Shown: positions 1-50,902 of the stretch, in pieces
Layout of the letters: the number at the start of each line of letters is the position of its first letter
How positions within the stretch are numbered: position 1 is the stretch's first letter
Source of the DNA: a virus
Strand: one strand, 5' to 3'
Virus record (IMG/VR): IMGVR_UViG_3300043399_000587
Coordinates: 1-64,000 of that record
Length of the DNA stretch: 64,000 nt
Program-made: the position numbers and the translations under genes
The notes under the pieces: model-generated
The model's input: only the letters and a program-made list of their open reading frames with translations
Told to the model about the DNA's origin: nothing
Database searches by the model: none

Positions 1-886
1 GGAAGCTGAAAAGAATCCTCATACAAGCGCATTAGGTAAAGCATTGTATCGTGACTTAAGCAAAGAGAAGAAGGCAAGCCCGCAACAAGTTCAACGCAAC
101 AAAGAGCGGTGGGCACAGCGCCAGGCAGATAAAGAGCAAGGTGTGGCGGAAGGTACTCCGACATCGCTGATGAGACAATACCGTTCAAATGAAAATAATA
201 ATAATCATTCAGAAAATATAGTGCTATTGGCAAAACATTTTGGTACACCAGGAGAACTGTCAGTCGCTCGACGGGCACTAAAATACAGAGATGAGAAGGG
301 TGGATTTGATTATAGTGATCCTAAAGCTAAAAAGTACACAGATTTTCAACTAATGATTCATGAAAAATATTTCCCTCTTCTTAGATTAAAGCAAGGTGTG
401 GCGGAAGGCTCCCTTAACGAGATTAGTCAAGACACTGCTATGTCATACATAAGCAAACGTAAGAACACTGATGTATCTGGCAAAACCCCACAACAGATAG
501 GAAAAATGATCAAGGGTCTCAAAGGTGCCGTAGCAAGAGCGTACGGTGAAAAGCCAACAAGCCCTGCTAAAAACAAAGAGCAAGGTGTGGCGGAAGGATA
601 CCATAACAATATAATGCATGCCTGGAACTCTGGAATGAGTGATGATGAATTAGTAAGAAAATTCGGGCAAGGTGCATTTAATCAATTAAAACGAAAATAC
701 GGTGCCGGTGCCATTCCAGTTCCTGATTTAGTAGGGTATAAGCCAAAAGAACCAGAAGATAAAAAAGTGAGATTGCATAGAGGTTTGGAAGGGCCCGGAA
801 AGGTACTTAAATCAATTATAAAACAGCAAGATGTGAAGGAGGGTCAAGAAGACCTTGATGCCATCAAGAAATTAATGGGTAAATAA
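1..886 (+). CDS. 5'-truncated modular probable internal head/virion polyprotein with QGVAEG repeats
   Basis: Frame is open from the window start (EAEKNPHTSALGKALYR...). It has three K/E-QGVAEG motifs plus a degenerate QQDVKEG, an LNEIS motif, and the C-terminus EDLDAIKKLMGK. Confidence 0.6.
   Translation, partial: EAEKNPHTSALGKALYRDLSKEKKASPQQVQRNKERWAQRQADKEQGVAEGTPTSLMRQYRSNENNNNHSENIVLLAKHFGTPGELSVARRALKYRDEKGGFDYSDPKAKKYTDFQLMIHEKYFPLLRLKQGVAEGSLNEISQDTAMSYISKRKNTDVSGKTPQQIGKMIKGLKGAVARAYGEKPTSPAKNKEQGVAEGYHNNIMHAWNSGMSDDELVRKFGQGAFNQLKRKYGAGAIPVPDLVGYKPKEPEDKKVRLHRGLEGPGKVLKSIIKQQDVKEGQEDLDAIKKLMGK
131..153 (+). repeat. GVAEG repeat copy 1 (AAAGAGCAAGGTGTGGCGGAAGG)
   Basis: Read directly; identical to the copy at 575-597. 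Confidence 0.95.
388..408 (+). repeat. GVAEG repeat copy 2 (AAAGCAAGGTGTGGCGGAAGG)
   Basis: Read directly; the core AGCAAGGTGTGGCGGAAGG is identical to copy 1. Confidence 0.95.
575..597 (+). repeat. GVAEG repeat copy 3
   Basis: Read directly. Confidence 0.95.
821..843 (+). repeat. Degenerate GVAEG repeat (AAACAGCAAGATGTGAAGGAGGG)
   Basis: Same frame and register as the other copies, with several mismatches. Confidence 0.6.
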
Positions 887-892
887 AATCAT

Positions 893-921
893 AAAAAACC
901 TCACTTTATAAAGTGAGGTTT
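893..921 (+). terminator. Hairpin terminator AAACCTCACTTT-AT-AAAGTGAGGTTT
   Basis: Inverted repeat immediately after the stop at 886. Confidence 0.7.
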
Positions 922-942
922 GCCATATCTGGAATAAATACA

Positions 943-971
943 TTGACGGCAGTAAGAAGATATGCTAAACT
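943..971 (+). promoter_or_regulatory. Sigma70-type promoter for the gp32-like gene (TTGACG-N17-TAAACT, extended TG)
   Basis: Consensus-like boxes with a 17-nt spacer. Confidence 0.55.
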
Positions 972-1049
972 TCATTCTGACGTTAGTTACACATAATGTG
1001 TAGCGACATTAAAAAACGAGACCATCTCAATTTTATAAGGAAATTAAAA

Positions 1050-2048
1050 ATGACGACATTAGCGGAAATAAGGGCTAGGATTAAAGCCCAAGAAAACAAA
1101 TCACAACAAAGTTCATCTGGTCCTAGCGACAATTCAATATATCCCCACTGGAACATGGACGAAGGTGCAACAGCTACCGTACGTTTTCTCCCAGACGCAG
1201 ATTCTAATAATACGTTCTTTTGGGTTGAACGACAAATCATCAAACTTGCTTTTAATGGAGTTAAGGGCGATCCTAATATCAAACAAACTGTTGTTCAAGT
1301 TCCATGCATGGAGATGTATGGTGACTCTTGTCCTATTCTTGCTGAAGTTCGTCCTTGGTATAAAGACGAAACTCTCAAAGAAATGGCAAACAAATATTGG
1401 AAAAAGCGTAGTTATCTATTCCAAGCCTTTGTTCGTCAAAATCCTCTTGGCGATGATAAGACTCCCGCAAATCCAATTCGCCGACTAATCATCAGTCCGC
1501 AAATCATTCCTATCATCCGTACAGGTTTGATGGATCCTGAACTGGTTGAACTACCAACTCATTATATGCGAGGTCTTGACTTCAACATTCGTAAGACCAG
1601 CAAGGGTGGCTATGCTGATTACAGCACAAGTACTTGGGCACGCCGTGAATCAGCATTAACGGAGGCAGAACAGGCTGCTATTGAAGCACATGGACTTTTC
1701 AATCTTGCTGATTTTCTTCCTAAGAAGCCGAATGAGGCTGAATTGCGCATCATCAAGGAAATGTTTGAAGCCTCAGTAGAAGGTAAGCCCTACGACAATG
1801 AACGTTGGGGTCAATATTATCGTCCATATGGACTTGAAGCTCCTACAGGTTCTACAACGGCAGAACAACCTGCGTCTACCACGAATAGCGCATCCGTTGC
1901 TCAGTCTGCAATTGATTCTTCACCCCCATGGGAAGATGAACCAACTGCATCGACACAACCTGTCAAGGTTCCAACTACTCCGCCAAGTGATAAGGCTCAG
2001 GACATTTTGGCACTAATTCGTTCTCGTCAAAATAAAACTAACTCTTAA
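1050..2048 (+). CDS. Single-stranded DNA-binding protein, T4 gp32-like
   Basis: VRFLP motif, C-x8-CP metal site, G.DFNIRK..KGGYADY.TS, acidic/Pro tail. AAGGA RBS precedes the ATG at 1050. Confidence 0.85.
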   Translation: MTTLAEIRARIKAQENKSQQSSSGPSDNSIYPHWNMDEGATATVRFLPDADSNNTFFWVERQIIKLAFNGVKGDPNIKQTVVQVPCMEMYGDSCPILAEVRPWYKDETLKEMANKYWKKRSYLFQAFVRQNPLGDDKTPANPIRRLIISPQIIPIIRTGLMDPELVELPTHYMRGLDFNIRKTSKGGYADYSTSTWARRESALTEAEQAAIEAHGLFNLADFLPKKPNEAELRIIKEMFEASVEGKPYDNERWGQYYRPYGLEAPTGSTTAEQPASTTNSASVAQSAIDSSPPWEDEPTASTQPVKVPTTPPSDKAQDILALIRSRQNKTNS

Positions 2049-2063
2049 TTACAATAGGGCACG

Positions 2064-2759
2064 GTGACAACTATAGCCTACTTATACAAATGGACTCATA
2101 TGCCTACAGGTATGTGGTATGTGGGTTCTCGGTCGGCAAAAGGTTGTCATCCTGATGATGGGTATTTGTGCTCAAGTGGTGTAGTTAAACCATTAATTTT
2201 AGAAAACCAAAATGAGTGGAAAAGAGATATTTTAATATTGGGTGATCCCGAATATATTATTAATTTAGAAAATAATTATTTACAAAAATTAGATGCCAAA
2301 AATGATCCAATGTCTTTTAACAAGCACAATGGAGATGGCATTTATGTAACATTGGGTGATAAGAATCCAATGAAAAATCCGTTAATTGCTAAAAAAGTTG
2401 CAAACGCAATACGAGGGGAAAATCATTGGACAAATCATTTAAATGGGGCTACTCATCCTCAGCAAGGTCAAAAAAGACCCAGTATTACTGGCGATAATCA
2501 TCCAAACAAGAAGAAAGAAAACGCATTAAAAATTAGTGATTCTCATAAAGGAAAAAAACATGAGTATGCGTTAGGTGATAAAAATGTAATGCGTGATCCC
2601 AAAATTGCTGCTAAACTTTCAGGTGAAAATCATTAGACAGTTAAAAAACAAAAATATCAATGCCCGCATTGCGGAATTTTATGTATTAAAAGTAACTACA
2701 CACGATGGCACGGCAAAAGTTGCAAAAAACAAAAAGGAGTCATATATGACATTACCTGA
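2064..2759 (+). pseudogene. GIY-YIG-like homing endonuclease interrupted by an in-frame TAG at 2634-2636
   Basis: N-terminal AYLYKW...WYVGSR and G(D/E)xNP/H NUMOD-like repeats. The frame continues past TAG into the CPHC...RWH...C finger and ends at TGA 2757-2759. Confidence 0.7.
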
Positions 2760-2982
2760 CGAACGCTACCGTGCTTTAAAGCAAGGTAAAAAACTGTTGG
2801 AAGAATTATGTGACCCGGGTAGAACTCCTCGGGTTCCTGCATTAGTAAGAGACAGAGCAAGGGGTGTTTTACGACATTATCCAAGTGATTATGAACTGGA
2901 AAGGATCGCCGACAACTGTCCAGAGTTCCTTGACAAAATCTCATTTGTCGATAAAATGTATATGAACATTCCACACAAATAA
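2746..2982 (+). CDS. Hypothetical phage protein (MTLPDERYRA...)
   Basis: AGGAG RBS precedes the ATG at 2746. Confidence 0.7.
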   Translation: MTLPDERYRALKQGKKLLEELCDPGRTPRVPALVRDRARGVLRHYPSDYELERIADNCPEFLDKISFVDKMYMNIPHK

Positions 2983-2994
2983 TAGGAGAATAAA

Positions 2995-4050
2995 TTGGGG
3001 AAACCATTCGATGTTAGCAAATTTAGAAAAGATATTACCAAATCCATTGAAGGACTTAGTATCGGATTTAACGACCCTACTGACTGGGTTAGTACAGGAA
3101 ATCACGCCCTTAATTATCTCATTAGCGGTGATTTTAATAAAGGTGTCCCTCTTGGTAAAGTTACTGTCTTTGCCGGAGAATCAGGATCAGGAAAATCATA
3201 TATCTGTTCCGGAAACCTTGTCCGACACGCACAACAACAGGGAATCTTTGTTGTCCTCATTGATTCAGAAAATGCCTTGGACGAAGATTGGCTAAAGGCA
3301 TTAGGTGTTGATACCAGTGAAGATAAGCTTCTTAAACTCAACATGGCAATGATTGATGACGTTGCCAAAACAATTAGTGAGTTTATGAAAAGTTACAAGG
3401 CACTCCCACCAGAAGATAAGCCTAAAGTTCTATTCATTATCGATTCACTAGGTATGCTATTAACACCTACCGATGTTAATCAGTTCGAAGCAGGCGACAT
3501 GAAAGGTGACATGGGTCGCAAGCCCAAAGCATTGACTAGTCTTGTTCGTAACTGTGTCAACATGTTCGGTAGTCATAACGTTGGATTAGTTGCTACTAAT
3601 CATACATACGCAAGCCAAGATATGTTTGATCCTGATGACAAAATTTCAGGTGGTCAAGGCTTCATTTATGCTTCAAGTATTGTTGTTGCTATGAAAAAAC
3701 TAAAACTTAAAGAAGATGAAGATGGTAACAAAGTAAGTAATGTACGTGGTATTCGTAGTGCATGCAAGGTTATGAAAACACGTTACGCTAAACCTTTTGA
3801 AAGTGTACAGGTTAAGATCCCGTATGATCAGGGAATGAGTCCATTCTCCGGTCTTACTGACTTGATTGAAGGAAAGGGTTTACTTTCAAAAGAAGGTAAT
3901 AGTTTGGTCTATACTACAAAAGACGGAGAAATTATCAAAAAGTTTCGCAAAGGTTGGGAACGAAATGACGATGAATGTCTGAATATTGTAATGAAAGATA
4001 TCATGCTTTCACCGAAAGAAGTTCAATCAGAACCTACTGACGAAAAATAA
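2995..4050 (+). CDS. uvsX: RecA/UvsX recombinase
   Basis: Walker A GESGSGKS, IDSENALD, Walker B FIIDSLG, ISGG.G..YASS. Confidence 0.92.
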   Translation: MGKPFDVSKFRKDITKSIEGLSIGFNDPTDWVSTGNHALNYLISGDFNKGVPLGKVTVFAGESGSGKSYICSGNLVRHAQQQGIFVVLIDSENALDEDWLKALGVDTSEDKLLKLNMAMIDDVAKTISEFMKSYKALPPEDKPKVLFIIDSLGMLLTPTDVNQFEAGDMKGDMGRKPKALTSLVRNCVNMFGSHNVGLVATNHTYASQDMFDPDDKISGGQGFIYASSIVVAMKKLKLKEDEDGNKVSNVRGIRSACKVMKTRYAKPFESVQVKIPYDQGMSPFSGLTDLIEGKGLLSKEGNSLVYTTKDGEIIKKFRKGWERNDDECLNIVMKDIMLSPKEVQSEPTDEK

Positions 4051-4064
4051 AAATTGTACCTACC

Positions 4065-4181
4065 ATGGAAAAGATTATGAGAAATAAAAAGATACCAACA
4101 CGCGGTTCATGTAAAGGCTGGTTTGTTGAAAAATCAGAAACTAAGCTAAGTACTCTATCAACTGAGGAGGAACATGAATAA
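4065..4181 (+). pseudogene. Short ORF, possible C-terminal remnant of a homing endonuclease
   Basis: MEKIMRNKKIPTRGSCKGWFVEK...; the C/Y-KGW motif also occurs in the endonucleases at 22.1-22.8 and 26.5-27.2 kb. Confidence 0.35.
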
Positions 4182-4426
4182 TGACATTGAATTTTGTTGC
4201 AGAAGTTTGGGACGCATTACGCAACCATATTGATTTCAACGAACGTAAAGAGGCAGCAGATTCACTAGTGAATCTGCTAATCGAAAACAATTATGAAGCC
4301 GATGAAATTAAAGAATCGTTTCGTGGTGAAAAAGAAATCCTTACAGCATTGAAAGATTATGTAAGTGAACACGAACAAGAAGAATTCGAAGATGACGAAG
4401 AAGAATCGGATGACGATGAATGGTGA
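4181..4426 (+). CDS. Acidic hypothetical protein
   Basis: GAGGAGG RBS; lies in the uvsX-uvsY operon. Confidence 0.75.
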   Translation: MTLNFVAEVWDALRNHIDFNERKEAADSLVNLLIENNYEADEIKESFRGEKEILTALKDYVSEHEQEEFEDDEEESDDDEW

Positions 4427-4429
4427 TAA

Positions 4430-4888
4430 ATGAATTGGTATAGCAGAATAACGCAAAACCTTACAATCATACCTGATTTTATTACACACTATGAAAACGA
4501 ATTAGCAGCGGCAAAGAACGAGGTGAAAATTTATGGCAATGTTGAAAAGAACATTGCCAATTTACCTGGTGTTACCGAACATCGTTTCAACCAATTACAA
4601 GAGATTGAGGCAGTATTAAATTATCTCAATATTCAATTACGGAAAATTCGCCGAAAACATTTTCAAAAATATTTAGAAGCGTATAATAGAGCACTGACCA
4701 GCCGTGACGCAGAAAAATATGTTGATGGTGAAGATGAGGTAATTGACTTTGAAACCATCATTAACGAAGTTGCATTGTTACGCAATCGTTGGTTAGGGAT
4801 TATGAAGGGTCTTGAAGCCAAACAATGGCAGATGGGTCATATTGTTCGCCTGCGTACAGCAGGTATGGAAGACATTACTATAGGATGA
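4430..4888 (+). CDS. uvsY: Recombination mediator, UvsY-like
   Basis: Helical protein of about 150 aa, DAEKYVDGED motif, located next to uvsX. Confidence 0.75.
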   Translation: MNWYSRITQNLTIIPDFITHYENELAAAKNEVKIYGNVEKNIANLPGVTEHRFNQLQEIEAVLNYLNIQLRKIRRKHFQKYLEAYNRALTSRDAEKYVDGEDEVIDFETIINEVALLRNRWLGIMKGLEAKQWQMGHIVRLRTAGMEDITIG

Positions 4889-4891
4889 TTT

Positions 4892-5695
4892 ATGAAATCA
4901 CAAGGATCAAAAGTTTTTAATTTACCGAAAATTCCAAAAATGAACGGTGCTATAGCTCCGTGGGCAGTAAAGTCAATACTAGGGGAATCTGATATATTTT
5001 CAGAAAAAAACATAATCATTAAGAAATATGAAATCGTAGAGATTCCCGAAGATTTGTTAGCGTTGAGTTGTGCATGGCATCGTATTCGCCAAAAAATTAA
5101 AAGTGGGGCCGATCACAATTATCATAGGATCACCTCTTTACTCGATGATAAATTATTTGATTTAGTCCAACAAGAGGATAAAGAGAAAGCAGATTCTATT
5201 AGAAATTATTATAGTAAAAAACTGATGATGCTGACTCTATTGGAAATTAAATTTACCCAATTCAGAGAAGACCTTAACGAATTTTTACAAGGTAACGGTA
5301 AGAAATTTAAAGAACAGTTTTTACCTATGGTATATAGGTTACCTGAATTCTACGAAACAGATTTGCAATTTGAAAATATCAAGTCCAATTTCGAATTGGA
5401 TATCAAAGAAGATAGCAGAAAATTTTTGAGGTCACGTGGAGTTGAAACTACCTTTGAATTTATGCCTATCGCATCTCTCAAAAAAGAAAATAAAAGTATG
5501 AAGCGTACAGAATACTGGTTAAAAACAAAATCAAATAAGTTTGGTTATGTGTTAGTATTAGATGACGTTAATCCACTAAAGTCATTATGGGAGCGTGAGT
5601 TTAAAAAACAAACAATTGTCATGGATGCGACAATGGTCCCAAAAATTCGTGATGGTCTATATTACTATGTATTGTATAATTATACCGTAATTTGA
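4892..5695 (+). CDS. Hypothetical protein
   Basis: 267-aa ORF; its stop TGA lies in the -35 box of the next promoter. Confidence 0.7.
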   Translation: MKSQGSKVFNLPKIPKMNGAIAPWAVKSILGESDIFSEKNIIIKKYEIVEIPEDLLALSCAWHRIRQKIKSGADHNYHRITSLLDDKLFDLVQQEDKEKADSIRNYYSKKLMMLTLLEIKFTQFREDLNEFLQGNGKKFKEQFLPMVYRLPEFYETDLQFENIKSNFELDIKEDSRKFLRSRGVETTFEFMPIASLKKENKSMKRTEYWLKTKSNKFGYVLVLDDVNPLKSLWEREFKKQTIVMDATMVPKIRDGLYYYVLYNYTVI

Positions 5696-5720
5696 CAATA
5701 AATCCACAGTGTTATATACT
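5692..5720 (+). promoter_or_regulatory. Early promoter repeat 1 (TTGACAATAAAT...TATACT)
   Basis: -35/-10 boxes with a 17-nt spacer. Confidence 0.85.
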
Positions 5721-5744
5721 GTGGGCACAGTAAGGAAAACAGTC

Positions 5745-5939
5745 ATGAAGACTTATCAAGAAGTGATTGAACGTGCTGCCCGCAGGATCTATGATGCTTA
5801 CATGGGCGGCACCTATGACTATTACAATGTGGTCCCCTGCAGTGAGATTGCTTTCATTTTTGAAAAGACCAGTGATGAAGTCCATGAGGATAGTGTAGAG
5901 GCCTTCAAGGCTATTAGCCTTCAAGGTTATTCTAGATAA
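5745..5939 (+). CDS. Small early protein (MKTYQEVIER...)
   Basis: TAAGGA RBS; follows the promoter. Confidence 0.7.
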   Translation: MKTYQEVIERAARRIYDAYMGGTYDYYNVVPCSEIAFIFEKTSDEVHEDSVEAFKAISLQGYSR

Positions 5940-5986
5940 CCCTGCATGGCGCTAGGTAAGCTTTCCGAGAAGTAAGGAGCACAGTT

Positions 5987-6154
5987 ATGAAGACCAACTT
6001 GTTCAACTCCCGTCATCACGCCCGCGTGGGCCCCGGCGGCTGGTTCTGCACTTGCTGCGGTCCGGCTCCTAAGAATCGCAAGGTTGTTGTCCGGCAGCAC
6101 AAGCGTAGGATCACCCGTATTTTGGATAAGCTTGAGCATGATGTTCAGGCTTGA
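5987..6154 (+). CDS. Small basic Cys-containing early protein, 55 aa (not in ORF track)
   Basis: TAAGGAG RBS; translates as MKTNLFNSRHHARVGPGGWFCTCCGPAPKNRK... Confidence 0.65.
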   Translation: MKTNLFNSRHHARVGPGGWFCTCCGPAPKNRKVVVRQHKRRITRILDKLEHDVQA

Positions 6155-6179
6155 CAATAAATGGGTTTGGGAATACAAT
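6151..6179 (+). promoter_or_regulatory. Early promoter repeat 2
   Basis: TTGACAATAAAT...TACAAT. Confidence 0.85.
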
Positions 6180-6208
6180 ACTTGTATTGATTGATCAAGG
6201 AGTCTGAT

Positions 6209-6451
6209 ATGACTATCAAGCGTTTCAAGCAATCCCAACGTTTTCGTGTTATTGTCGGTCCTGCGTGTTTCTATGCTACTGCCAAACAGATTCGCAATGG
6301 GGTTGGTGGTTTCATCAAGTGCAACGCCGCAACCCAAAAGGCTCTCGACGCCCTAGAATTTACCCGTTCGGGTAAAGGTCTTGCTGACCAGTGCGCCGTG
6401 GGTCTTGCTGGTACTTGGGAAGGTCTGCAAGTCCAGTTAGATTTGGCTTGA
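6209..6451 (+). CDS. Small early hypothetical protein
   Basis: AAGGAG RBS before the ATG at 6209. Confidence 0.7.
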   Translation: MTIKRFKQSQRFRVIVGPACFYATAKQIRNGVGGFIKCNAATQKALDALEFTRSGKGLADQCAVGLAGTWEGLQVQLDLA

Positions 6452-6476
6452 CAATAAATCCATAAGGCTCTATAAT
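6448..6476 (+). promoter_or_regulatory. Early promoter repeat 3
   Basis: TTGACAATAAAT...TATAAT. Confidence 0.85.
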
Positions 6477-6507
6477 AGAGTCTTATTCAGTCAGAAGGAG
6501 TCCTGTG

Positions 6508-6720
6508 ATGGGCTACAAGGTTCTTGGTCGTACTGATGAACTGCTCAAGGGGTACGGACCTCGTAAGGGCCTCGAAGGCCCCTTCATTTATATCAACGGT
6601 AGGATTCTGTACTACGATCCCAAAGCTGGTAAGTATTGGGACCCTCGCACCGACTTCTACGTTGAGCAGGACGAAATGGACCTGCTTAACAAAGAACTTG
6701 CTAGATTCCTTTCTCGGTAA
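6508..6720 (+). CDS. Small early hypothetical protein (YYDPK.GKYWDP.TDFY)
   Basis: AAGGAG RBS. Confidence 0.75.
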   Translation: MGYKVLGRTDELLKGYGPRKGLEGPFIYINGRILYYDPKAGKYWDPRTDFYVEQDEMDLLNKELARFLSR

Positions 6721-6722
6721 AT

Positions 6723-6751
6723 TTGACAATAAATCAGTTTGGGCATACAAT
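6723..6751 (+). promoter_or_regulatory. Early promoter repeat 4
   Basis: TTGACAATAAAT...TACAAT. Confidence 0.85.
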
Positions 6752-6777
6752 ACATGTATTCGTTAACAGGAGCATGT

Positions 6778-6963
6778 ATGCTTAATACACTTAATGATTT
6801 TATTCGTAAAGTAGAAAGTCTGAAAAACATTTCAGATGCCTACGATGTTTTTGAAGATGAATGCACGGACCAACTCCGTGATGAAATCTATAATTTTGCT
6901 GATCCTGAGGATTACGAACCTTTCCGCGCTGCCATGCACAATTTAGGTTTTGACACTTACTAA
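6778..6963 (+). CDS. Small acidic early protein
   Basis: AGGAG RBS before the ATG at 6778. Confidence 0.7.
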   Translation: MLNTLNDFIRKVESLKNISDAYDVFEDECTDQLRDEIYNFADPEDYEPFRAAMHNLGFDTY

Positions 6964-6981
6964 TTTGTTACATACCCGAAT

Positions 6982-7010
6982 TTGACAATAAATGGATTCG
7001 GGTATATAAT
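6982..7010 (+). promoter_or_regulatory. Early promoter repeat 5
   Basis: TTGACAATAAAT...TATAAT; a 10-bp inverted repeat flanks the -35 box. Confidence 0.85.
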
Positions 7011-7040
7011 AGAATCTTAGACAGTTGATTAACGGATTTT

Positions 7041-7208
7041 ATGTATCAAGTCGTTGTAAAGAAACTTATTGATGTTGGTATCAAAAAAGTCCGTTTTATC
7101 GGTACTAACGAAGAATGTGTGCGTTGGATGACCAATCATCGTTGGGGGTACTATGAACTCCTTGGGCCTGATGGGCGTCTTCGCTCTTATGTGCTTGGTA
7201 AAATCTAA
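7041..7208 (+). CDS. Small early protein, 55 aa (not in ORF track)
   Basis: MYQVVVKKLIDVGIKKVRFIG...; lies between promoters 5 and 6. Confidence 0.6.
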   Translation: MYQVVVKKLIDVGIKKVRFIGTNEECVRWMTNHRWGYYELLGPDGRLRSYVLGKI

Positions 7209-7216
7209 CCCAGAAT

Positions 7217-7245
7217 TTGACAATAAATCCCAATCCTGATATACT
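7217..7245 (+). promoter_or_regulatory. Early promoter repeat 6
   Basis: TTGACAATAAAT...TATACT. Confidence 0.85.
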
Positions 7246-7274
7246 GTATTCATAGTCAAGAAACGGAGCGAAAT

Positions 7275-7763
7275 ATGAAGATCGTCATCAGCACCCAGAT
7301 CCGCGAAAACTATGGCATCCACGATTGGGACGGTAAGGGCACTTGCCCGCAATACTGGAGGTGCAAGGGCGGTGACACCTACGTTGTCCCGAACCTGACG
7401 GTTGCTCAGGTCCTCAAGGTCAAGGATCAGGGCATCCCGACCCTGAAGGCTCTGATCGAATCCCGCAATGAGGGTTTCGAGGAGTACGTTGTTGATTGGT
7501 CGATCCTGGATGATGACGCCACTGTGTGTGAGCCGTGGGAAACCCCGTTCGAACTGTTCTGGGAACAGGGTCGCTGGGTCGCTCGGCGCACCGTCGAGAA
7601 CGGTGAGTACGGCTACATGCGCCGTGAGGTTGCTAGCAAGTCCGAGCAGTATGACATGCTGATGGCGGCCGGTCGTGAGAACTACCGTGTGGTCTATACG
7701 ATGCGTAACGGTGATTCGGTCACCGGTGAGCAGGTCTCGGAATATCTTTCGAAGGCTGCTTAA
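7275..7763 (+). CDS. Early hypothetical protein (TQ.RENYG.HDWDG.G.CPQYW)
   Basis: GGAG RBS; GC-rich codon usage. Confidence 0.8.
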   Translation: MKIVISTQIRENYGIHDWDGKGTCPQYWRCKGGDTYVVPNLTVAQVLKVKDQGIPTLKALIESRNEGFEEYVVDWSILDDDATVCEPWETPFELFWEQGRWVARRTVENGEYGYMRREVASKSEQYDMLMAAGRENYRVVYTMRNGDSVTGEQVSEYLSKAA

Positions 7764-7810
7764 GGTGTTGATCGCCGCAGCGAATACGGAATGGCATAAG
7801 GATTTATAAA

Positions 7811-7993
7811 ATGTCTGTCAACCAACTACTTATCACTGTCACTGATTTTGTAGACGAACACGCCAATGAGGCGATCTTTTGGCGCGATTACATTACGTTG
7901 CGACAAACCTACGACATTCGAACCAGTCTTGAAATGGCACTATCCAATCAAGGGTTCTCCCTTCCGGATGTAGAATCTAGCAATAATTCATGA
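7811..7993 (+). CDS. Small hypothetical protein
   Basis: TAAGGA RBS. Confidence 0.6.
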   Translation: MSVNQLLITVTDFVDEHANEAIFWRDYITLRQTYDIRTSLEMALSNQGFSLPDVESSNNS

Positions 7994-8000
7994 AAATTGT

Positions 8001-8029
8001 TTGACAATAAATGGATTTGGGTATATAAT
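8001..8029 (+). promoter_or_regulatory. Early promoter repeat 7
   Basis: Differs from repeat 5 at one of 31 nt. Confidence 0.85.
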
Positions 8030-8061
8030 ACATACATAGACAGTTGAGACACGGAGCAAAT

Positions 8062-9078
8062 ATGTCAACGATTCGCATTCTTTCTGGTTCTTATCGCAAC
8101 CAAGCCGTCAAGGGCGAGGTGTTTACTCTTGTCAAGGGTTTTCAGACTGGCAAGAAGGGCAATTATGTCACTGTTCAAAACGACGGTCAGTTTTCTGTTG
8201 ATATCCCTGTCGTCAAGGTCAAGGTCAACGGCATGTCTGACATCGAATTTCTGAACGGTGCCCCTGTGGCCCCGCAAGTGTCCGCGCCCGTGACCGCGAC
8301 CGAGACCGATGAACAGGCTATGAATCGCATCAAGGAGCGTTTTGACATTCTTGATGAAATGAGTCGTGCTTGCATCGCTGGTGACATCCGTTCAATGATT
8401 GTCACTGGACCTCCTGGAGTCGGCAAGTCGCATGGTGTTCACACCCAGCTGCAAAAGGCTGTCATGTTTGACAAGATTGCTGGCAATCAACCTCGCTTTG
8501 AAGTTGTCAAGGGTACTATGTCGGCTATCGGGCTGTTCGCCCTCTTGTACAAGTACTCCGACGCTAAGAACGTCCTGGTGTTTGATGACTGCGACATTTG
8601 GGAAGATCAGGATGCTATCAATATTCTGAAGGGTGCGTTGGATTCTGGCAAGACTCGTCGGATCTCTTACAACAAGGATTCTCGACTCCTGCGTGATGAA
8701 GGTGTCCCCAACACTTTCAACTTCAACGGTTCTATCATTTTCATCACCAACAAGACCTTCGACAACAAGCGTGCTACCAAGATTCAGCCTCACCTGGATG
8801 CTCTGCAGTCTCGCAGTCACTTTCTGGATCTGACTATCAACACCGAACGTGACAAGATGCTACGCATCCGTCAAGTGCATCGTGATGCTGATCCGGGTCT
8901 GTTTGTTGACTATGGCTTTAGCACGGAGCAGGAAGGTATGATTCTGACTCATATGTGGGATAACCATACTAAGATGCGTGAAATCAGTCTCCGTATGACT
9001 CTTAAGATTGCGGATCTGGTTAAGATCAGCCCGAACAACTGGCATAATCTGGCACGTGCTACTTGCATGAAGGATTGA
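8062..9078 (+). CDS. AAA+-type P-loop ATPase
   Basis: Walker A GPPGVGKS, Walker B VLVFDDCD, IIFITN sensor, ALQSR. Confidence 0.8.
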   Translation: MSTIRILSGSYRNQAVKGEVFTLVKGFQTGKKGNYVTVQNDGQFSVDIPVVKVKVNGMSDIEFLNGAPVAPQVSAPVTATETDEQAMNRIKERFDILDEMSRACIAGDIRSMIVTGPPGVGKSHGVHTQLQKAVMFDKIAGNQPRFEVVKGTMSAIGLFALLYKYSDAKNVLVFDDCDIWEDQDAINILKGALDSGKTRRISYNKDSRLLRDEGVPNTFNFNGSIIFITNKTFDNKRATKIQPHLDALQSRSHFLDLTINTERDKMLRIRQVHRDADPGLFVDYGFSTEQEGMILTHMWDNHTKMREISLRMTLKIADLVKISPNNWHNLARATCMKD

Positions 9079-9096
9079 TACTTCTCACACAATAAA

Positions 9097-12121: not shown

Positions 12122-12122
12122 T

Positions 12123-43945: not shown

Positions 43946-43948
43946 TTT

Positions 43949-43970
43949 AGAAGGGGATTCTTCCCCTTCT
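43949..43970 (+). terminator. Hairpin after the sheath gene
   Basis: AGAAGGGGA-TTCT-TCCCCTTCT. Confidence 0.65.
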
Positions 43971-44017
43971 ATCTTAACTTTAGTTAGAGATAAATAATAT
44001 AAACAGGAGAAATAAAA

Positions 44018-44710: not shown

Positions 44711-44743
44711 TTTCAGGTTGATAATCGGCCGAGTTTATAATCA

Positions 44744-45706: not shown

Positions 45707-45707
45707 T

Positions 45708-45980
45708 ATGTCATCAATCAATACAGCCAACAATCCTAACGTATCATATAACTATCAAAAGAATCCTAATTTAACTGCATCAAATTTTGCACAATCACAA
45801 GCAGGATTGATTATATCTAATAGAGATAGACCTAATGTAAATAGAAATGCAAGATTCATTTTTCCAGCAAACATGAGTACTCCTAATTATGGTGCAGGTT
45901 CACCGACTCTTTTAGCAAGAACAGGCCCCGCTACAATTGATGGAGAATTTTTATACGCAGGACGTCAGGTGACAGCATAA
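45708..45980 (+). CDS. Hypothetical protein
   Basis: ORF in the tail operon. Confidence 0.5.
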   Translation: MSSINTANNPNVSYNYQKNPNLTASNFAQSQAGLIISNRDRPNVNRNARFIFPANMSTPNYGAGSPTLLARTGPATIDGEFLYAGRQVTA

Positions 45981-45981
45981 T

Positions 45982-46350
45982 ATGGCAAGAATTATTGATG
46001 ATCGATCAACCTCACTAGATAGAACTGTACAAATCTTTGATTCATTCTATCAAACCGATTTAAAAGTTGGCGCAAGCCAATTTGACATTGTGCATGGCTA
46101 CTTTACTAGTGTATGTGGCACAAAAAACATAGCGGATAACTTTACTACCGTATTATTTAGAATATCTACGCAAACGGGTGTTGATGTCTTAACTCTACTT
46201 GATGAGTTAAAAGGCAAAAACACAAACAAATTACAAATGAATCAGCAAATTTGTTACTGGTTGAACAGTTTAAAATCTAAAACTTCATTATACGGAATCG
46301 CAGTGATTCCTCAGCCAGTAGTTCCTGTTGCAAGAAACGTAGTTTTATGA
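45982..46350 (+). CDS. Hypothetical protein
   Basis: ORF in the tail operon. Confidence 0.65.
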   Translation: MARIIDDRSTSLDRTVQIFDSFYQTDLKVGASQFDIVHGYFTSVCGTKNIADNFTTVLFRISTQTGVDVLTLLDELKGKNTNKLQMNQQICYWLNSLKSKTSLYGIAVIPQPVVPVARNVVL

Positions 46351-46351
46351 T

Positions 46352-46789
46352 ATGGCAAAATGGGCGCAAGGCATCTACACTCCCAAAAACCCTCAAAAAT
46401 ATATAGGGAATCATAATCCCAAATATAGATCGGGTTGGGAACTTACGTTTATGACGTTTTGTGATAGTCATAAAAATGTGTTGTATTGGGCCAGTGAAGC
46501 ATTAAGAATCCCCTACAAAAATCCCCTAACAGGAAAACAAACTATATATGTTCCTGATTTCTTCGTTGTTTATCAAAACAAGTACGGCAAGCAAATTGCT
46601 GAAGTCGTAGAAATAAAACCTAAAAAACAAAGTCTAATTGAAAGTAAAGTTTCTAACGCCAAAGATAGAGCGATTGTAGCTATTAATCATGCTAAGTGGG
46701 CTTCGGCTATGGCATATTGTAAAAGTCAAGGTTATACTTTTAGAGTAATTACAGAAGACGACCTTTTCTATAATGGACGCAACCGTTAA
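46352..46789 (+). CDS. Head completion nuclease (T4 gp4-like, TnsA-like PD-(D/E)XK)
   Basis: PKNPQKY.G, YRSGWE, WASE...IPY, YVPDF, EIKP, FRVITE. Confidence 0.85.
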   Translation: MAKWAQGIYTPKNPQKYIGNHNPKYRSGWELTFMTFCDSHKNVLYWASEALRIPYKNPLTGKQTIYVPDFFVVYQNKYGKQIAEVVEIKPKKQSLIESKVSNAKDRAIVAINHAKWASAMAYCKSQGYTFRVITEDDLFYNGRNR

Positions 46790-46800
46790 TAAATACGGGT

Positions 46801-47283
46801 ATGACTAAGAAACTTGAAGAACTGTTTGAATTTCCTTCTGACGATAAGGAAGCCAACGAATCTATATTAGAAAAGGTAGCTGCTGATTCTATAACTCAGG
46901 ATGCACTTTCAAACATTGAGAAGATAGAAAACGCATTACCTCAGGTCCGCGGTTTAGAAGCCACAGATACTGAGATGGATGATCTAGCTGAATTAGCAAA
47001 GAATAGTTATAAAGATTTGATGGATTTGGGTATGCAAGTCGATAGCAGGTTTAGTGCTGAAATTTTTGGAATAGCTGGCAACATGTTAGGTCATGCTATA
47101 ACTGCTAAGACAGCAAAAGTCAATAAAAAGCTTAAAATGATTGAGCTACAACTTAAAAAAGCAGCATTAGATCACAAGCTAGCAGTTAAGAATGAAGAAG
47201 TAGAAGCTACACCATTAGGCGACGGACAACTTTTAGACCGAAACGAACTGCTTAAAATATTGGCTAACAAAAAAGACAAATAA
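46801..47283 (+). CDS. Hypothetical late protein, possibly terminase small subunit
   Basis: Helical, 160 aa, weak by-eye similarity to gp16 (SRFSAEIF; DRNELL). Confidence 0.35.
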   Translation: MTKKLEELFEFPSDDKEANESILEKVAADSITQDALSNIEKIENALPQVRGLEATDTEMDDLAELAKNSYKDLMDLGMQVDSRFSAEIFGIAGNMLGHAITAKTAKVNKKLKMIELQLKKAALDHKLAVKNEEVEATPLGDGQLLDRNELLKILANKKDK

Positions 47284-47312
47284 TGATAAATATAAGATAA
47301 TTGAGGAATAAT

Positions 47313-47948
47313 ATGATCAAGCATAGTTTAAAACACTATATAACCGAAAGTGTAAAGCTTTACGATTATACTATCAAAATCGCCGGAGAAGTAGATAAAA
47401 ACTTCTGTGATTTGTTTTGTCATAATCTTAAAGAGAAATTTGATGCGGTTGAAATAAGTAAACCTGTAACTACACCTATACAAAAAGATCCATATGGATT
47501 TCCTGATTTGCGTAATCAATCTATAACTATAATCAAAGCAAATTTCAGATACCCTGCTACTGAACCAATGATTCAACAAATCGCACAATTGTTAGGTTAT
47601 AACGTAAATTTGGTTCGTGCTGTGCAAACTAATTACAACGACAGCATCAATAGCGAGGCAGAAGGTTATGCTAATGAAGGTAGCCACAGTCCTCTATTAA
47701 ATCATACTGAACTAGAAGAACAGCCAGGCGCTAAAGAAGCAAATAAAGCATACGGCGACTCATATCGCCAAAGCATCAAAGATCAAATGAAGGGTAATGA
47801 AATACAAATGCAATATGCAGGTAAGCAAACACCCAATGCATTTGATCCTTTCAAGGCTATTCCACAAGATCCAAAAGGTGGCAATAGCCCTATGAGTAAA
47901 ATTACAAGACCAGCCAAACCAAAAACTGGGGCTGCTTTTAACAAATAA
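47313..47948 (+). CDS. Hypothetical late protein
   Basis: GATAAATA box and GAGGA RBS. Confidence 0.7.
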   Translation: MIKHSLKHYITESVKLYDYTIKIAGEVDKNFCDLFCHNLKEKFDAVEISKPVTTPIQKDPYGFPDLRNQSITIIKANFRYPATEPMIQQIAQLLGYNVNLVRAVQTNYNDSINSEAEGYANEGSHSPLLNHTELEEQPGAKEANKAYGDSYRQSIKDQMKGNEIQMQYAGKQTPNAFDPFKAIPQDPKGGNSPMSKITRPAKPKTGAAFNK

Positions 47949-47962
47949 TAAGGAAATAAAAA

Positions 47963-50902
47963 ATGGATTTCAAATCAATGTTACAACAGTTGAGCCAGTT
48001 AAGTGAGGCTACTAAAGAAACTGAAAAAGGTCGCATACACAAAGCTGATCCAGGTGGGTACGGTCGTAAGTTTGACACTGATGAAGAAGGTGATGAAAAT
48101 AAAGACGACAAGAAAAAAGAACCAGCAGTAAAGCGTGGGCGCGGTCGTCCTAAAAAGGGTGCTGATAGCGAAACTGGTCAAGTTGCAAAATATGATAATG
48201 CAAAGGCATTGCAAAGTTTTATGGTTGGTAATTTACCTAAAGGTAAATTGCCGGGTAAGCCAGGTAAAAAACACACGTTAAAGGACTGGGTCGAACAAAT
48301 AGAAGCAGAGTATGTTGCTGAAGCAGCTCCTGGACAGCAATTAACAGTTAAGCCAATGCCAGGAGCTGCTCAACTAGTAGATCCTTCAACACAAAGAGTT
48401 ATGGCAACAGGTGATGCGGCAGCCGTTAAGAATATACAAGGTGCAGTAGCACAGGGTAAAGTTCAAATGCGAGGCCCCGGTCCACAAGAAATGGCTGAAG
48501 AAGGTGATTATTCTGCTAAAAAAGCAAGAGCAGGAAAAGATATCGGTAAGCCAGGTAAGCAATTCAGTAAGATCGCTAAAAGCGCAGGTGAACGTTATGG
48601 TTCAAAGGCAGCAGGCGAACGTGTTGCAGGCGCTGTTCTTAAAAATCTAAGAAAAGCGGATGAAGGCGTTTCAGAAGCCTCAAAGAAGATTCCGGCAAGC
48701 AACAAACCAGTTAAGCCAGAAGATTTATATGTTTCACTAAAAGATATTCCAGCCAAAAAGCCGCGTGGACATACCCAATATGATCCCGCTAAAGAGTTTC
48801 CTGGGGTAAAAGCATTTAAAAAGCAAGGTGTGGCTGAAGGCTATTCACTGAAGAAAACTAATGTTGAAAAAACATTTCATCCAGGTGACCCAGAGGATTA
48901 CGGCAGTGTTGATATGACACGAAAAGATACGGATTACGAAATTATCAACAACAAAACAGGTCAAGTAGTAGGTACTGCGAGTTGGACTACTAATGATTAT
49001 TTTGGTCCAGGCGCACTAAAGATTACTATGAAGAATGGTGCCACACGCTGGATAGATATTTGGGAGCGTGAAAAAGGCAACCCACAAAGTGCTTTCAATC
49101 GCTTTGTGAAAGACCCAAAAACAGCCAAAAAATATAAAGAGCAAGGTGTGGCGGAAGCATCAAATGGTTTATATCAAAAAGCCATTCGCAAGTATGCCCA
49201 ACAAGTAGCAAATGATTATCTAGGCGGCGGAGACGAACATCTTTATGGTGCCAACAAGTTTGATGCTGAAATGTTTGGTGTAAGCCGAGAACAAGCAAAT
49301 AAAGACTTTAAGACATTGTTTAACATAATTGTACGTGCTCAAGCAGTAAAACAACGACAAGGTATGAAAGAGTCAGACACGGCAGAAAAAAAGAAAAATC
49401 CATGGAATGAAGGATATTGGGCAGGACATAGACAGGAAGATAGAGATTGCCCATATCCACCTGAGTCATCTGCCGCAGAATTCTGGGAACTTGGTTATTA
49501 TCAAGGCAACAAAGACAGAAAAGATGAGATGACAGGTCGTGTGATAGAAGCTGATATTCCATCTGATCAAATGGACATGGGTGCAGGCCTAGGTGCTGGA
49601 CGTAGTTCTAAAACTTTCGAAAGTACAAAAGCAAAACCAGATTTCTTAGATTTAGATAAAGATAAGAATAGAAAAGAGTCTATGAAAGATGCTGCTGCTC
49701 ACGCAAAACAAGGAAAGAAAAAGAAAATGAATGAAAGTTCACATAGACATTCTGCTGCTAGACTTATGGGCAAATCACATGCACTAGCAAAAGAAGGATA
49801 TAATTGCCGTTATGAAGATATGGATGAGGCAAGAGAATATCATGAAGGTTTCAAAGAAGGTTTGGACGAATGCTATGGACAAGGTGTGTATGAAATGGCA
49901 CCTTCGACCCCACCCATGACTATGGGCGGAATGGCAAATCAAGCTATGCCTGCAATGGAAGATGACATGGAAGAAGGTAATGCATTTACTGCTGCACTTG
50001 CAAGAACACCACGTGGCGGTGAGTTCAGTGTAGGCGGTAGATCATTTACTGATAGATCAGGATATGATGCAAAATTAGATGAATTAGCATTTGAAAGTTT
50101 AGATAACCAATTGAATGCATTATTAAATGAAGATGCTGTAGCAGAAGGCATGACTGTTTCTATAAGTAAAGGTCAACAAGGAATGCCTGATAGTGTTACA
50201 GTGTCAGCACAAGATAATGAAGCAGATGCATTGTTAGGTTTAATTAAACAAGCTGGTTTGGGTTTGTTCGGGGACGACCAACCCAATGGATATGAAGCTT
50301 CAGACGGGGATCAAGTTACATCTCATGGAGACATAAAAGTTGTAGGTGATCATGATGGTATGATGTCTTTGATTAAGAAAGTATCAGGTGGATCACAAGG
50401 TGATAGTGAAGACTATGCTGATGAAGAAGGTCACGAAGGTCATGATCACGCAGAAGATGAAGTATGCGATGACTGTGGTTCCGCAGACTGCCAATGTGAT
50501 GAAAAGGTAGATGAGGTTGAATCTTACGATCAAGAAGAAGAACAAGTAGCTGAAAATAATCCACCGGACAGTGACGCAGCCGAAACTACTGCAGATGAAA
50601 ATGCTGAAGCAGAAGAAGATATGGCTCTTGCCGCTACCAATGAAGGTGGTGATGGAAGTGAAGCCAGTGAAGAGGGCGAAGAACAAGTAACTGAATGGGC
50701 AAATGATGCAGGGAAAAGAGCAGAAGACTTTGATGATGAATCATTTAACACTGATATAGATTTTATTACAAAGGTAATTTCTGGTGGTTTAAACAAGCCA
50801 AAATCAACTGGTCAAACGACAGTACCCGTGGTTGCTAGTCAACATGATAGAATGGTAACACACGAATCTATTGCTGATTGGAAAAAATTAGCAGGATTGT
50901 GA
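47963..50902 (+). CDS. Large modular probable internal head polyprotein
   Basis: AT-hook KRGRGRPKK, QGVAE repeats, many hydrophobic-x-E motifs, acidic C-terminal half, ends WKKLAGL. Confidence 0.65.
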   Translation: MDFKSMLQQLSQLSEATKETEKGRIHKADPGGYGRKFDTDEEGDENKDDKKKEPAVKRGRGRPKKGADSETGQVAKYDNAKALQSFMVGNLPKGKLPGKPGKKHTLKDWVEQIEAEYVAEAAPGQQLTVKPMPGAAQLVDPSTQRVMATGDAAAVKNIQGAVAQGKVQMRGPGPQEMAEEGDYSAKKARAGKDIGKPGKQFSKIAKSAGERYGSKAAGERVAGAVLKNLRKADEGVSEASKKIPASNKPVKPEDLYVSLKDIPAKKPRGHTQYDPAKEFPGVKAFKKQGVAEGYSLKKTNVEKTFHPGDPEDYGSVDMTRKDTDYEIINNKTGQVVGTASWTTNDYFGPGALKITMKNGATRWIDIWEREKGNPQSAFNRFVKDPKTAKKYKEQGVAEASNGLYQKAIRKYAQQVANDYLGGGDEHLYGANKFDAEMFGVSREQANKDFKTLFNIIVRAQAVKQRQGMKESDTAEKKKNPWNEGYWAGHRQEDRDCPYPPESSAAEFWELGYYQGNKDRKDEMTGRVIEADIPSDQMDMGAGLGAGRSSKTFESTKAKPDFLDLDKDKNRKESMKDAAAHAKQGKKKKMNESSHRHSAARLMGKSHALAKEGYNCRYEDMDEAREYHEGFKEGLDECYGQGVYEMAPSTPPMTMGGMANQAMPAMEDDMEEGNAFTAALARTPRGGEFSVGGRSFTDRSGYDAKLDELAFESLDNQLNALLNEDAVAEGMTVSISKGQQGMPDSVTVSAQDNEADALLGLIKQAGLGLFGDDQPNGYEASDGDQVTSHGDIKVVGDHDGMMSLIKKVSGGSQGDSEDYADEEGHEGHDHAEDEVCDDCGSADCQCDEKVDEVESYDQEEEQVAENNPPDSDAAETTADENAEAEEDMALAATNEGGDGSEASEEGEEQVTEWANDAGKRAEDFDDESFNTDIDFITKVISGGLNKPKSTGQTTVPVVASQHDRMVTHESIADWKKLAGL
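48818..48840 (+). repeat. GVAEG repeat copy 4 (AAAAAGCAAGGTGTGGCTGAAGG)
   Basis: Read directly. Confidence 0.9.
49136..49157 (+). repeat. GVAEG repeat copy 5 (AAAGAGCAAGGTGTGGCGGAAG)
   Basis: 22/22 identical to copy 1, 49 kb away. Confidence 0.95.

Follow-up and report, generated by a model that had tools for sequence, protein, structure and literature searches.

What does a short stretch of DNA do that recurs almost letter for letter inside protein-coding genes and in a single reading frame, when the protein segments between its copies are unrelated to one another? This question is raised by the window analysed here, a stretch of 64,000 nucleotides at the start of a viral contig of 124,789 bp (IMG/VR record IMGVR_UViG_3300043399_000587; completeness 36% according to CheckV). 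Two open reading frames (ORFs) of the window, ORF1 (2-886) and ORF2 (47963-50902), carry copies of a 22-nt word, AAAGAGCAAGGTGTGGCGGAAG, which we call the joint; all copies in the window lie in frame, as (K/E)QGVAE(G/A), within these two ORFs. The answer that we lean towards is that ORF1 and ORF2 are chains of small modules and that the joint is both a DNA exchange patch and a putative cut site of the gp21 type.

A search of the window placed exact copies of the 22-mer at 131-152, 575-596 and 49136-49157 and near copies at 386-407 (3 mismatches, with the 16-nt core from 392 exact) and 48818-48839 (2 mismatches); 100 dinucleotide-preserving shuffles contained no match to it. A worn copy, AAACAGCAAGATGTGAAGGAGGGT, lies at 821-844 and is translated as KQQDVKEG. 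An initial annotation made from the letters of the window had listed these same copies, and only the near copy that it put at 388 had to be moved, to 386-407. It had also held that the repeat keeps to one frame and to two ORFs, which is true of the window but not of the full contig, where related joint copies occur in three further ORFs (Table 1). Comparison with relatives revealed three more joints in ORF2 that have decayed (DEGVSEA, RQGMKES and GRVIEA), and the worn joints of the window retain the pattern hydrophobic-x-E-small (V-K-E-G, V-S-E-A, M-K-E-S and V-I-E-A). The segments between joints, referred to below as modules or cassettes, are 43-100 amino acids long and, as the initial annotation had surmised, mutually unrelated (best E value 0.16 in an all-against-all blastp comparison). 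Eight of the nine cassettes are small and basic (43-100 aa, pI 9.1-10.5), the exception being cassette C with a pI of 4.8.

The spelling of the joint goes against the codon usage of the contig. GTG makes up 11.7% of its valine codons and GCG 7.0% of its alanine codons, and under this usage the probability of CAA GGT GTG GCG GAA, given the peptide QGVAE, is 0.0025. Called ORFs of the contig contain 21 V-A-E tripeptides, five of which are spelled GTG-GCG, and all five are G-V-A-E-G joints, which upholds the earlier remark that this spelling is kept against codon usage. The spelling was found at 5/7 G-V-A-E sites compared with 0/14 V-A-E sites without a preceding glycine (hypergeometric p ~0.001, calculated by hand); three of the latter sit in ORF2 itself, where they are spelled GTT-GCT, GTA-GCA and GTA-GCT.

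The test of synonymous sites against codon usage was positive not only in this contig but also in loci found independently of the joint. In an unbiased sample of 23 loci, picked solely by protein patterns far from the joint, 42/51 distinct xGVAEx sites were spelled GGTGTGGCGGAA and 46/51 were spelled GGTGTGGCGGAR, and the neighbouring codons varied freely. Among the matches listed from a scan with the word itself, which cover at least 120 loci, there were 171 open-frame QGVAEG sites, 156 of them with the exact spelling; when one ascertained copy per locus was subtracted, 39 sites with the exact spelling and 15 with another remained. The joint consensus reads AG CAA GGT GTG GCG GAA GGC, such that conservation of the DNA reaches the AG before and the C after the word. 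The residue before the word varies (E, K or Q), yet its codon keeps xAG (A in 81%, G in 71%), and the flanks beyond the consensus hold ~0.1 bit per position. Six distinct copies of module M1 exhibited synonymous variation in ~20/41 module codons compared with 1/5 joint codons.

A control scan used preferred-codon spellings of the peptide; because its counts are not comparable with those of the word scan, it was used for content only. Among the matches listed, it returned one copy per locus, with in-frame stops at 22/117 sites; these matches included a large conserved family that is unrelated, and true joints were in the minority. This unrelated phage family (…AFGGSRQGVAEGVMAGEYGR…), seen in L130, L136, L138 and ~30 other loci with a single copy each, spells QGVAEG with common codons, which means that the codon lock does not come with the peptide as such. 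The lock on silent sites is real, and it is specific to joints.

The word is widespread in viral sequence. At least 120 viral contig stretches contain an exact 17-mer, CAAGGTGTGGCGGAAGG; many of them hold 2-4 copies within 1-2 kb, and among the matches listed 155/155 copies with full flanks were in the QGVAEG frame, with flanks that were diverse and unrelated. The count across the genome and its relatives that the initial annotation had called for returned, among the matches listed, a word that always stands in the same frame. In contrast, the 20-mer was nearly absent from cellular genomes, with six stretches in 596 Gb, two of which are short phage-like contigs of metagenome-assembled genomes.

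The initial annotation had proposed that the repeat is a recombination joint at which modules are gained, lost or shuffled in frame, and ORF2 orthologues, module M1, one metagenome contig and the distribution of homology end points all agree with this proposal. Orthologues of ORF2 in L248, L249, L250, L251 and L084 have in common an N-terminal part (42-71% identity) and an acidic C-terminal part (51-64%) and carry different modules in the slot between QEMAEEGD and DIPSDQ, and alignment of L248, L249, L084 and L251 located the changes in module content exactly at the joint. L248 has a different module in the S1 slot. The S1 and S2 cassettes of L084 are 98% and 96% identical to those of the window, beside an N-terminal part that is only 46% identical; after joint 4 this locus has a different 107-aa cassette and then an intact QGVAEA at the place of the window's worn GRVIEA.

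The same modules were also found in different host genes. Cassettes A, B and C stand in the reverse order, C..B..A, inside a different host protein of 1145-1339 aa in L252-L254, and cassette B lies beside other neighbours in L252, L253, L254 and L107. M1 was found in 15 loci at 83-98% identity and in 14 ORF contexts, and intact or worn joints delimit it in every context but one, which ends at the edge of its locus. M4 has one relative, in L259 (53% identity), as part of a 983-aa protein. Thirty-six cluster representatives contain relatives of module A (E values up to 1e-3, 29 of them at 1e-10 or below), in host proteins of 107-1601 aa and at module positions from 7 to 1072.

At the DNA level, bases 1-152 of the window are 94% identical to the metagenome contig L324, and the match ends at the last base of joint 1; this contig is the sole other context that the metagenome-contig scan gave for the first module, and it is not an extension of ORF1. 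Contigs from the X3 and X4 runs, which belong to two studies and are not flagged as possible sources of the contig, carry single window modules at ~90-91% identity and diverge from the window at the joint edges 48839, 49139/49157, 49143 and 49363. At 49363, the worn RQGMKES of the window corresponds to an intact joint in an X3 contig, with another module behind it. Only the covered parts of the stretch were used for the X3-X5 run contigs. Two other signals in these data were judged to be repeat cross-mapping and not variants, namely an apparent skip from 48842 to 49136 in the possible source run, with no more than 22 letters on one of its sides, and at 49157 a loose end that is the repeat copy of ORF1. 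When all loci were taken together, 512 of the 4818 distinct end points of homology lay within 5 nt of a joint core, compared with 0.83% of random positions. The reading that modules are gained, lost, replaced and reordered in frame at the joint is well supported, because modules recur in other genes, orders and neighbourhoods and because homology ends at the joint.

False mosaics of this kind could arise if metagenome assemblers had fused unrelated phages at a short repeat. The window's own contig lends this explanation some colour, since its positions 1-7, GGAAGCT, are the end of a joint (...GCG GAA GCT, A-E-A); the N-terminus of ORF1 is lost because the contig starts inside this joint. That a contig ends in a joint indicates that the repeat or a neighbouring module disturbs assembly, and here the assembly broke within the joint repeat or its neighbouring high-copy module. 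However, assemblers usually finish with word sizes longer than 20-22 nt, the length of this repeat. The shared modules are diverged (83-98% identity in protein, ~90-94% in DNA) rather than identical copies, independent records show the same architectures (L260 = L261 = L262; L253 = L254), and the reading frame is kept in all copies. We regard an assembly artefact as scarcely credible.

Fixed silent positions could also mean that the word acts in the mRNA, as a translational pause, as an internal start (AAGGUG followed by GUG) or as take-off and landing sites for ribosome hopping. The fixed positions themselves and the Shine-Dalgarno-like AAGGUG are all that favours such a role. A start codon at the proper distance is not consistent, the word forms no structure, resident joints decay without loss of the gene, and the pile-up of homology breaks at the joint would go unexplained. 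A function in the mRNA is accordingly very improbable in our estimate. Chi-like and RegB-like sites were considered by eye as readings of the joint and were not retained.

Do the cassettes move by machinery of their own? The initial annotation had called the array integron-like. In an integron, unrelated cassettes stand in an array at a recurring site, and they are gained, lost and reordered there. The joint array resembles this in being delimited by a recurring site with gain, loss and reordering at it, and differs in that its cassettes are in-frame protein segments and not genes. No tyrosine recombinase (IntI, PF00589) was found in any of three records, namely the contig itself and two relatives rated 97% and 99% complete, in a search whose control was positive in 14/14 genomes. 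Likewise, the 20-nt consensus holds no inverted repeat such as an attC-type palindrome would require, and the fold of 120-165 was not better than that of shuffles (z -0.97). Since neither an integrase nor an attC-like structure was found, "integron-like" describes an analogy of outcome and not of machinery, and in the latter sense the label had to be dropped.

A broader possibility is that the word is the target of a dedicated nuclease or recombinase, encoded by phage or host, that moves cassettes as in homing or site-specific recombination. Conservation that is sharp over ~12-20 nt is typical of protein recognition sites, the silent sites are more fixed than the flanking residues, and so short a patch is a poor substrate for general recombination. 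The authors who described PeSL elements raised a similar possibility for those elements, according to passages of their paper (PMC2839356). Arguing against such an enzyme are the three records without a tyrosine recombinase, two of which are 97-99% complete, and the lack of dyad symmetry or stable structure in the joint. Further, the joints were not seen to be accompanied by any gene as they move, although this was not tested systematically, and resident joints decay in place, which would be unexpected if the phage needed each site. We consider a dedicated enzyme improbable, if clearly less so than a role in the mRNA.

The PeSL elements themselves are the nearest parallel for exchange at the DNA level. 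As described in passages of PMC2839356, they are short conserved DNA linkers around variable units in T4-type genomes, and insertion, deletion and replacement occur exactly at the linkers; the same passages propose general phage recombination as the engine and draw the comparison with integrons. PeSLs differ from the joint in being intergenic and ~100 bp long, in carrying a promoter and a terminator, and in moving whole genes, again according to parts of that paper (PMC2839356), whereas the joint, of 12-22 nt, is a translated part of genes with a fixed frame and moves modules of proteins. Since it is translated in frame and lacks a promoter or stem-loop, the joint is not a PeSL element. Mini-circles have been demonstrated for PeSLs, as stated in a passage of the same source (PMC2839356), while in the assembled contigs analysed here neither an excised circle nor a junction variant was seen for the joint.

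The second half of the reading that we favour, namely that the joint is also a protease site, draws on the internal proteins of T4. Excerpts of the literature give the T4 CTS leader of these proteins as MKTYQEFIAE (PMC8442874), state that gp21 cleaves after L/I-x-E (PMC9026906) and describe the internal proteins of T-even phages as diverse except for the leader (PMC3012670, PMC12373910). A leader of the form M..[EDQ][hydrophobic]..E was found in 36/82 joint-bearing ORFs compared with 109/926 other ORFs in the loci; the p value of 8e-12 comes from six-frame ORFs on related contigs. Examples in joint-bearing ORFs include MKLREFITEA and MRFTEFISEA, and some ORFs pass directly from leader to joint, for example MRATEFIIEGVAEG. 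Ahead of module A, 27/29 cluster representatives have [LIVMF]-x-E-[GAS]. In stand-alone module A proteins of 107-128 aa, a leader (MKLTEILSEG, MRAKEFITEG) takes the place of the joint, and a stop codon stands where the next joint would begin.

Related records also encode the machinery that such processing would call for. A gp21-family protease (PF03420) was detected in 7/10 large related records and a T4-type major capsid protein (MCP; PF07068) in 6/9, and the head genes of relatives are ordered protease, scaffold, MCP. The 99%-complete record G007 (of L048) has neither MCP nor protease because its contig ends fall where relatives have the head-gene cluster, the two ends mapping to either side of it; the completeness estimate of 99% for G007 conceals that a core module is missing. 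In the MCP of relatives, an L-A-E stands just before the conserved core, and its assignment as the processing site is a guess because the L-T-E|A site of T4 aligns to a segment that the relatives lack.

ORF2 in addition ends like a scaffold. The tail of its family, ...DWKKLAGL, corresponds to that of the scaffolds of relatives (...IKRLAGL), and the pattern (S/N)(I/V)x(D/E)(I/W/F)K(K/R)LAG(L/I) covers the scaffolds (L271-L279), ORF2 (50864-50899) and, weakly, ORF1 (845-883). Among the six frames of the 124.8-kb contig, the tail motif was found only at the ends of ORF1 (the weaker ...AIKKLMGK) and ORF2. The shared C-terminal tail may be a prohead-binding tail, to judge from this resemblance. T4 gp68, for its part, ends in ...RRKALGLS.

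From the leaders, the hydrophobic-x-E-G ahead of module A, the gp21-type protease and MCP of relatives and the scaffold-type tail of ORF2, we infer that cleavage after V-A-E and packaging of the chains into the capsid are plausible; they are unproven, and we judge them moderately probable.

Could the joint instead be a recombination joint and flexible linker and nothing more, in chains that stay uncut as large multi-domain ("polyvalent") proteins and need not be in the capsid? All of the evidence on DNA and shuffling fits this explanation equally well; ORF2 lies among tail and neck genes, and many host proteins are 800-1600 aa long with large non-cassette parts. It accounts less readily for worn joints that lose DNA identity yet keep hydrophobic-x-E-small, as do the 27/29 sites before module A, for leader-plus-module A proteins of 107-128 aa that end at the position of the next joint, and for the enrichment of T4-CTS-like leaders among joint ORFs together with the scaffold-type tail of ORF2. 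We therefore hold a pure linker to be unlikely, though by no means far-fetched.

Several observations weigh against our preferred reading of the joint as both exchange patch and cut site. On the DNA side, a patch of 12-22 nt is short for homologous recombination (recombination patches under 50 bp are cited in passages of the PeSL paper, PMC2839356), and the silent-site lock is left unexplained by a cleavage role. The joint was found in none of 50,697 GenBank phage records, and neither ORF1 nor ORF2 had a tblastn match in them. On the protein side, P3 in the joint is valine, compared with leucine or isoleucine in T4, and the E-G ahead of module A might be part of the fold rather than of a cleavage site. 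The start of ORF2, MDFKSMLQQLSQLSEA, with L-S-E-A at 13-16, falls outside the leader pattern used, the N-terminus of ORF1 is missing from the contig, and the leader p value overstates independence because it rests on six-frame ORFs and related contigs. The scaffold-type tail is confined to scaffolds and the ORF2 family (1/126 joint ORFs compared with 8/1798 others), and it is missing from the joint ORFs of G001, a relative rated 97% complete. Protease and MCP are absent from the window's own contig, a 36% fragment. Lastly, ORF2 is surrounded by genes for tail and neck (sheath, tube, head closure, collagen-like fibre and lysozyme), an objection that is tempered by the gene order of T4, in which the prohead-core genes come after sheath, tube and portal.

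The mechanism that we propose would work at two levels. ORF1 and ORF2 would belong to a class of strings, in T4-type giant phages, of small, mostly basic modules that fold independently. At the DNA level, the joint is a short patch of identity common to many genes and phages, at which homologous exchange starts and stops, so that modules pass as whole units and in frame from one position, gene or genome to another. Cassettes with intact joints would spread while resident joints decay in place, and these two processes together could account for both the silent-site lock and the worn copies. Because resident joints at orthologous positions are often worn, the lock would be kept by the spread of cassettes and not by a need of the phage for each site. 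At the protein level, hydrophobic-x-Glu followed by a small residue is the pattern of gp21-family prohead proteases and matches the ends of the CTS-like leaders; the chains would enter the prohead, be cut into small proteins and possibly be ejected with the DNA, like the internal proteins of T4. In its fullest form, one 20-nt word would be read twice, as a recombination address and as a protease site, such that any cassette would fit the joint of any cargo gene and be packaged, cut and delivered; we rate this extended version as quite possible, a little short of even.

The features of both ORFs and the joint copies beyond the window are collected in Table 1.

Table 1. Modules, joints and conserved parts of ORF1 and ORF2, and joint copies on the contig beyond the window (positions are those of the contig, of which the window is the first 64,000).
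Feature	Position	Strand	Details
ORF1	2..886	+	294 visible aa in several modules; runs off the contig at its 5' end
ORF1 module M1 (EKNPHTSALG...RQAD)	8..130	+	pI 10.0
Joint 1, KEQGVAEG	131..154	+	exact 22-mer
ORF1 module M2	155..385	+	pI 9.6; sub-threshold DUF2719 match (18.4 bits, cut-off 26)
Joint 2, LKQGVAEG	386..409	+	20-nt consensus AGCAAGGTGTGGCGGAAGGC exact
ORF1 module M3	410..574	+	pI 9.9; no family match
Joint 3, KEQGVAEG	575..598	+	exact 22-mer
ORF1 module M4 (YHNNIMHAWNSG...)	599..820	+	pI 9.8
Worn joint KQQDVKEG	821..844	+	V-K-E-G kept
ORF1 C-terminal tail QEDLDAIKKLMGK and stop	845..886	+	weak variant of the scaffold-type tail
ORF2	47963..50902	+	979 aa; conserved N- and C-terminal parts, central cassette slot
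ORF2 conserved N-terminal part	47963..48508	+	starts MDFKSMLQQLSQLSEA, ends QEMAEEGD
Cassette S1 (YSAKKARAGKDIGKPGKQF...)	48509..48658	+	pI 10.5
Worn joint DEGVSEA	48659..48679	+	GAA GGC GTT TCA GAA GCC
Cassette S2 (SKKIPASN...GVKAF)	48680..48817	+	pI 9.9
Joint 4, KKQGVAEG	48818..48841	+	GCT in place of GCG
Cassette A	48842..49135	+	autonomous beta-rich domain, AlphaFold2 pLDDT 90.2
Joint 5, KEQGVAEA	49136..49159	+	exact 22-mer
Cassette B (SNGLYQKAIRKY...)	49160..49354	+	pI 9.4
Worn joint RQGMKES	49355..49375	+	
Cassette C	49376..49534	+	RMF-like; pI 4.8
Worn joint GRVIEA	49535..49552	+	border to the conserved C-terminal part
ORF2 conserved C-terminal part	49553..50902	+	acidic, pI 4.3; ends ...ESIADWKKLAGL
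IGVAEG joint	73912		exact 14-nt core
QGVSEE joint	75152		contig beyond the window
EGVAEA joint	101535	-	contig beyond the window

The conserved C-terminal part of ORF2 holds a further [VI]-x-E-G site, DAVAEGM (50132-50152), which is spelled GTA GCA and kept across orthologues. When ten pieces of ORF1 and ORF2 were compared with Pfam, only two sub-threshold matches were obtained, DUF2719 for M2 and RMF for cassette C (24.1 bits, under the gathering cut-off of 27.9); a PDB sequence search found no match to cassette C among solved-structure sequences. If the likeness to RMF is real, cassette C could be an injected factor akin to ribosome-hibernation proteins. PHROGs returned nothing for ORF1 and one weak family of unknown function for ORF2, and a protein atlas search with M2 and B gave no usable match. 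The module A model had no informative structural neighbours: the best Foldseek match in the PDB was a uracil-DNA glycosylase inhibitor (E 0.1, TM 0.35), the best BFVD match had an E value of 1.3e-2, and VIA-align gave a Z of 6.2, which is at background level. The idea that ORF2 is a tape measure protein was rejected on inspection of the sequence, which is charged and acidic and has no such features.

The contig is a fragment of an uncultured T4-type giant phage, as judged by its tail, head-closure and UvsX-like genes and by related records of 338-343 kb, rated 97-99% complete, that have about half of their ORFs in common with it at ~50% identity. Two runs flagged as possible sources of the contig, X1 and X2, are labelled as freshwater metagenomes. 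The window encodes tail sheath, tail tube and head-closure genes and a RecA/UvsX-like gene whose DNA is ~70-71% identical to that of jumbo phages such as Cronobacter phage GAP32, and a gp32-like single-stranded DNA-binding protein gene was recognised by eye at 996-2048. Downstream of the latter, an ORF at 2064-2636 has the look of a GIY-YIG homing endonuclease with repeated NUMOD-like motifs (also by eye). Directly after ORF2 come a 907-aa collagen-repeat, tail-fibre-like protein (51000-53723; Pfam Collagen, E 8e-65) and then a lysozyme/chitinase-like endolysin (53736-54359; phrog_181, E 5e-77).

Seven copies of a sigma-70-like early promoter (TTGACAATAAAT ... TATAAT/TATACT) are arrayed at 5689-8068, starting at 5692, 6151, 6448, 6723, 6982, 7217 and 8001, and each precedes one or two small ORFs. 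This arrangement is PeSL-like, and if it is one, the genome would hold intergenic as well as intragenic shuffling linkers. Beyond the window, at 73183-80655 and at 100456-101850 (minus strand), lies a gene cluster with T4-CTS-like leaders (MKINQIIINE, MSNILRGLKE, MKIVELLNE, MRALEFITE, MRATEFITE, MKANDFVNE and MKYIELMEGAEP), two members of which (76134 and 78345) have weak PHROG matches to a T7-gp0.7-like protein kinase. These are candidate capsid-delivered enzymes.

How do the joint proteins compare with other systems that diversify proteins or deliver them? Like the T4 internal proteins, with their CTS leader and gp21, they would offer small, basic and diverse cargo; the T4 proteins have in common only a short leader ending in hydrophobic-x-Glu. 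The parallel extends to relatives with a T4-type MCP and gp21-family protease, to joint-ORF leaders close to MKTYQEFIAE, and to module A, which occurs here in leader-plus-module proteins. In contrast, T4 cargo is encoded by separate genes with one leader each, whereas joint proteins hold several unrelated modules in one frame and repeat the putative cut site internally, in DNA that is fixed across phages.

In the antigenic-variation systems of Borrelia (vlsE, with its 17-bp direct repeats) and Neisseria (pilE/pilS), short conserved in-frame repeats bound the segments that are exchanged. As with the joint, short DNA repeats in a coding region flank the recombined segment and the frame is kept; those systems vary one domain from silent copies within one genome, while the joint brings together unrelated domains in different genes and phages. 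Iyer and colleagues reportedly described, in 2017, polyvalent proteins of phages and conjugative elements that combine many unrelated domains in a chain and are thought to be delivered into the host. Polyvalent proteins resemble joint proteins in having many domains in one chain. Viral polyproteins, which a viral protease cuts into separate products at a recurring site, would resemble them if the joint is cleaved as proposed. To our knowledge, a linker conserved at silent positions across genomes has been described for neither. No description of the QGVAEG joint was found in the literature searched, coverage of which excluded subscription journals and supplements. What is new is an in-frame, gene-internal linker, fixed at silent sites across contigs, at which unrelated domains are exchanged between different genes.

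If the reading of ORF1 and ORF2 as exchangeable cargo chains is true, large phages would diversify their injected proteins by trading ready-made modules and not by evolving each gene separately, through a standard connector that preserves the frame and probably also the signal for processing. Two known themes, the hypervariable internal proteins of T4 and modular shuffling mediated by linkers, would thereby be extended to the interior of genes. The joint is also an unusually clear natural case of silent codon positions selected for a non-translational reason. A single word of 17-20 nt would serve as a handle for harvesting hundreds of candidate injected effectors from metagenomes, which could include anti-defence or host-takeover factors, and the connector could serve the engineering of phage cargo. 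For the phages themselves, it would mean a shared and rapidly reshuffled pool of small injected effectors, in which the cassettes would be semi-selfish mobile units with the joints as their "ends".

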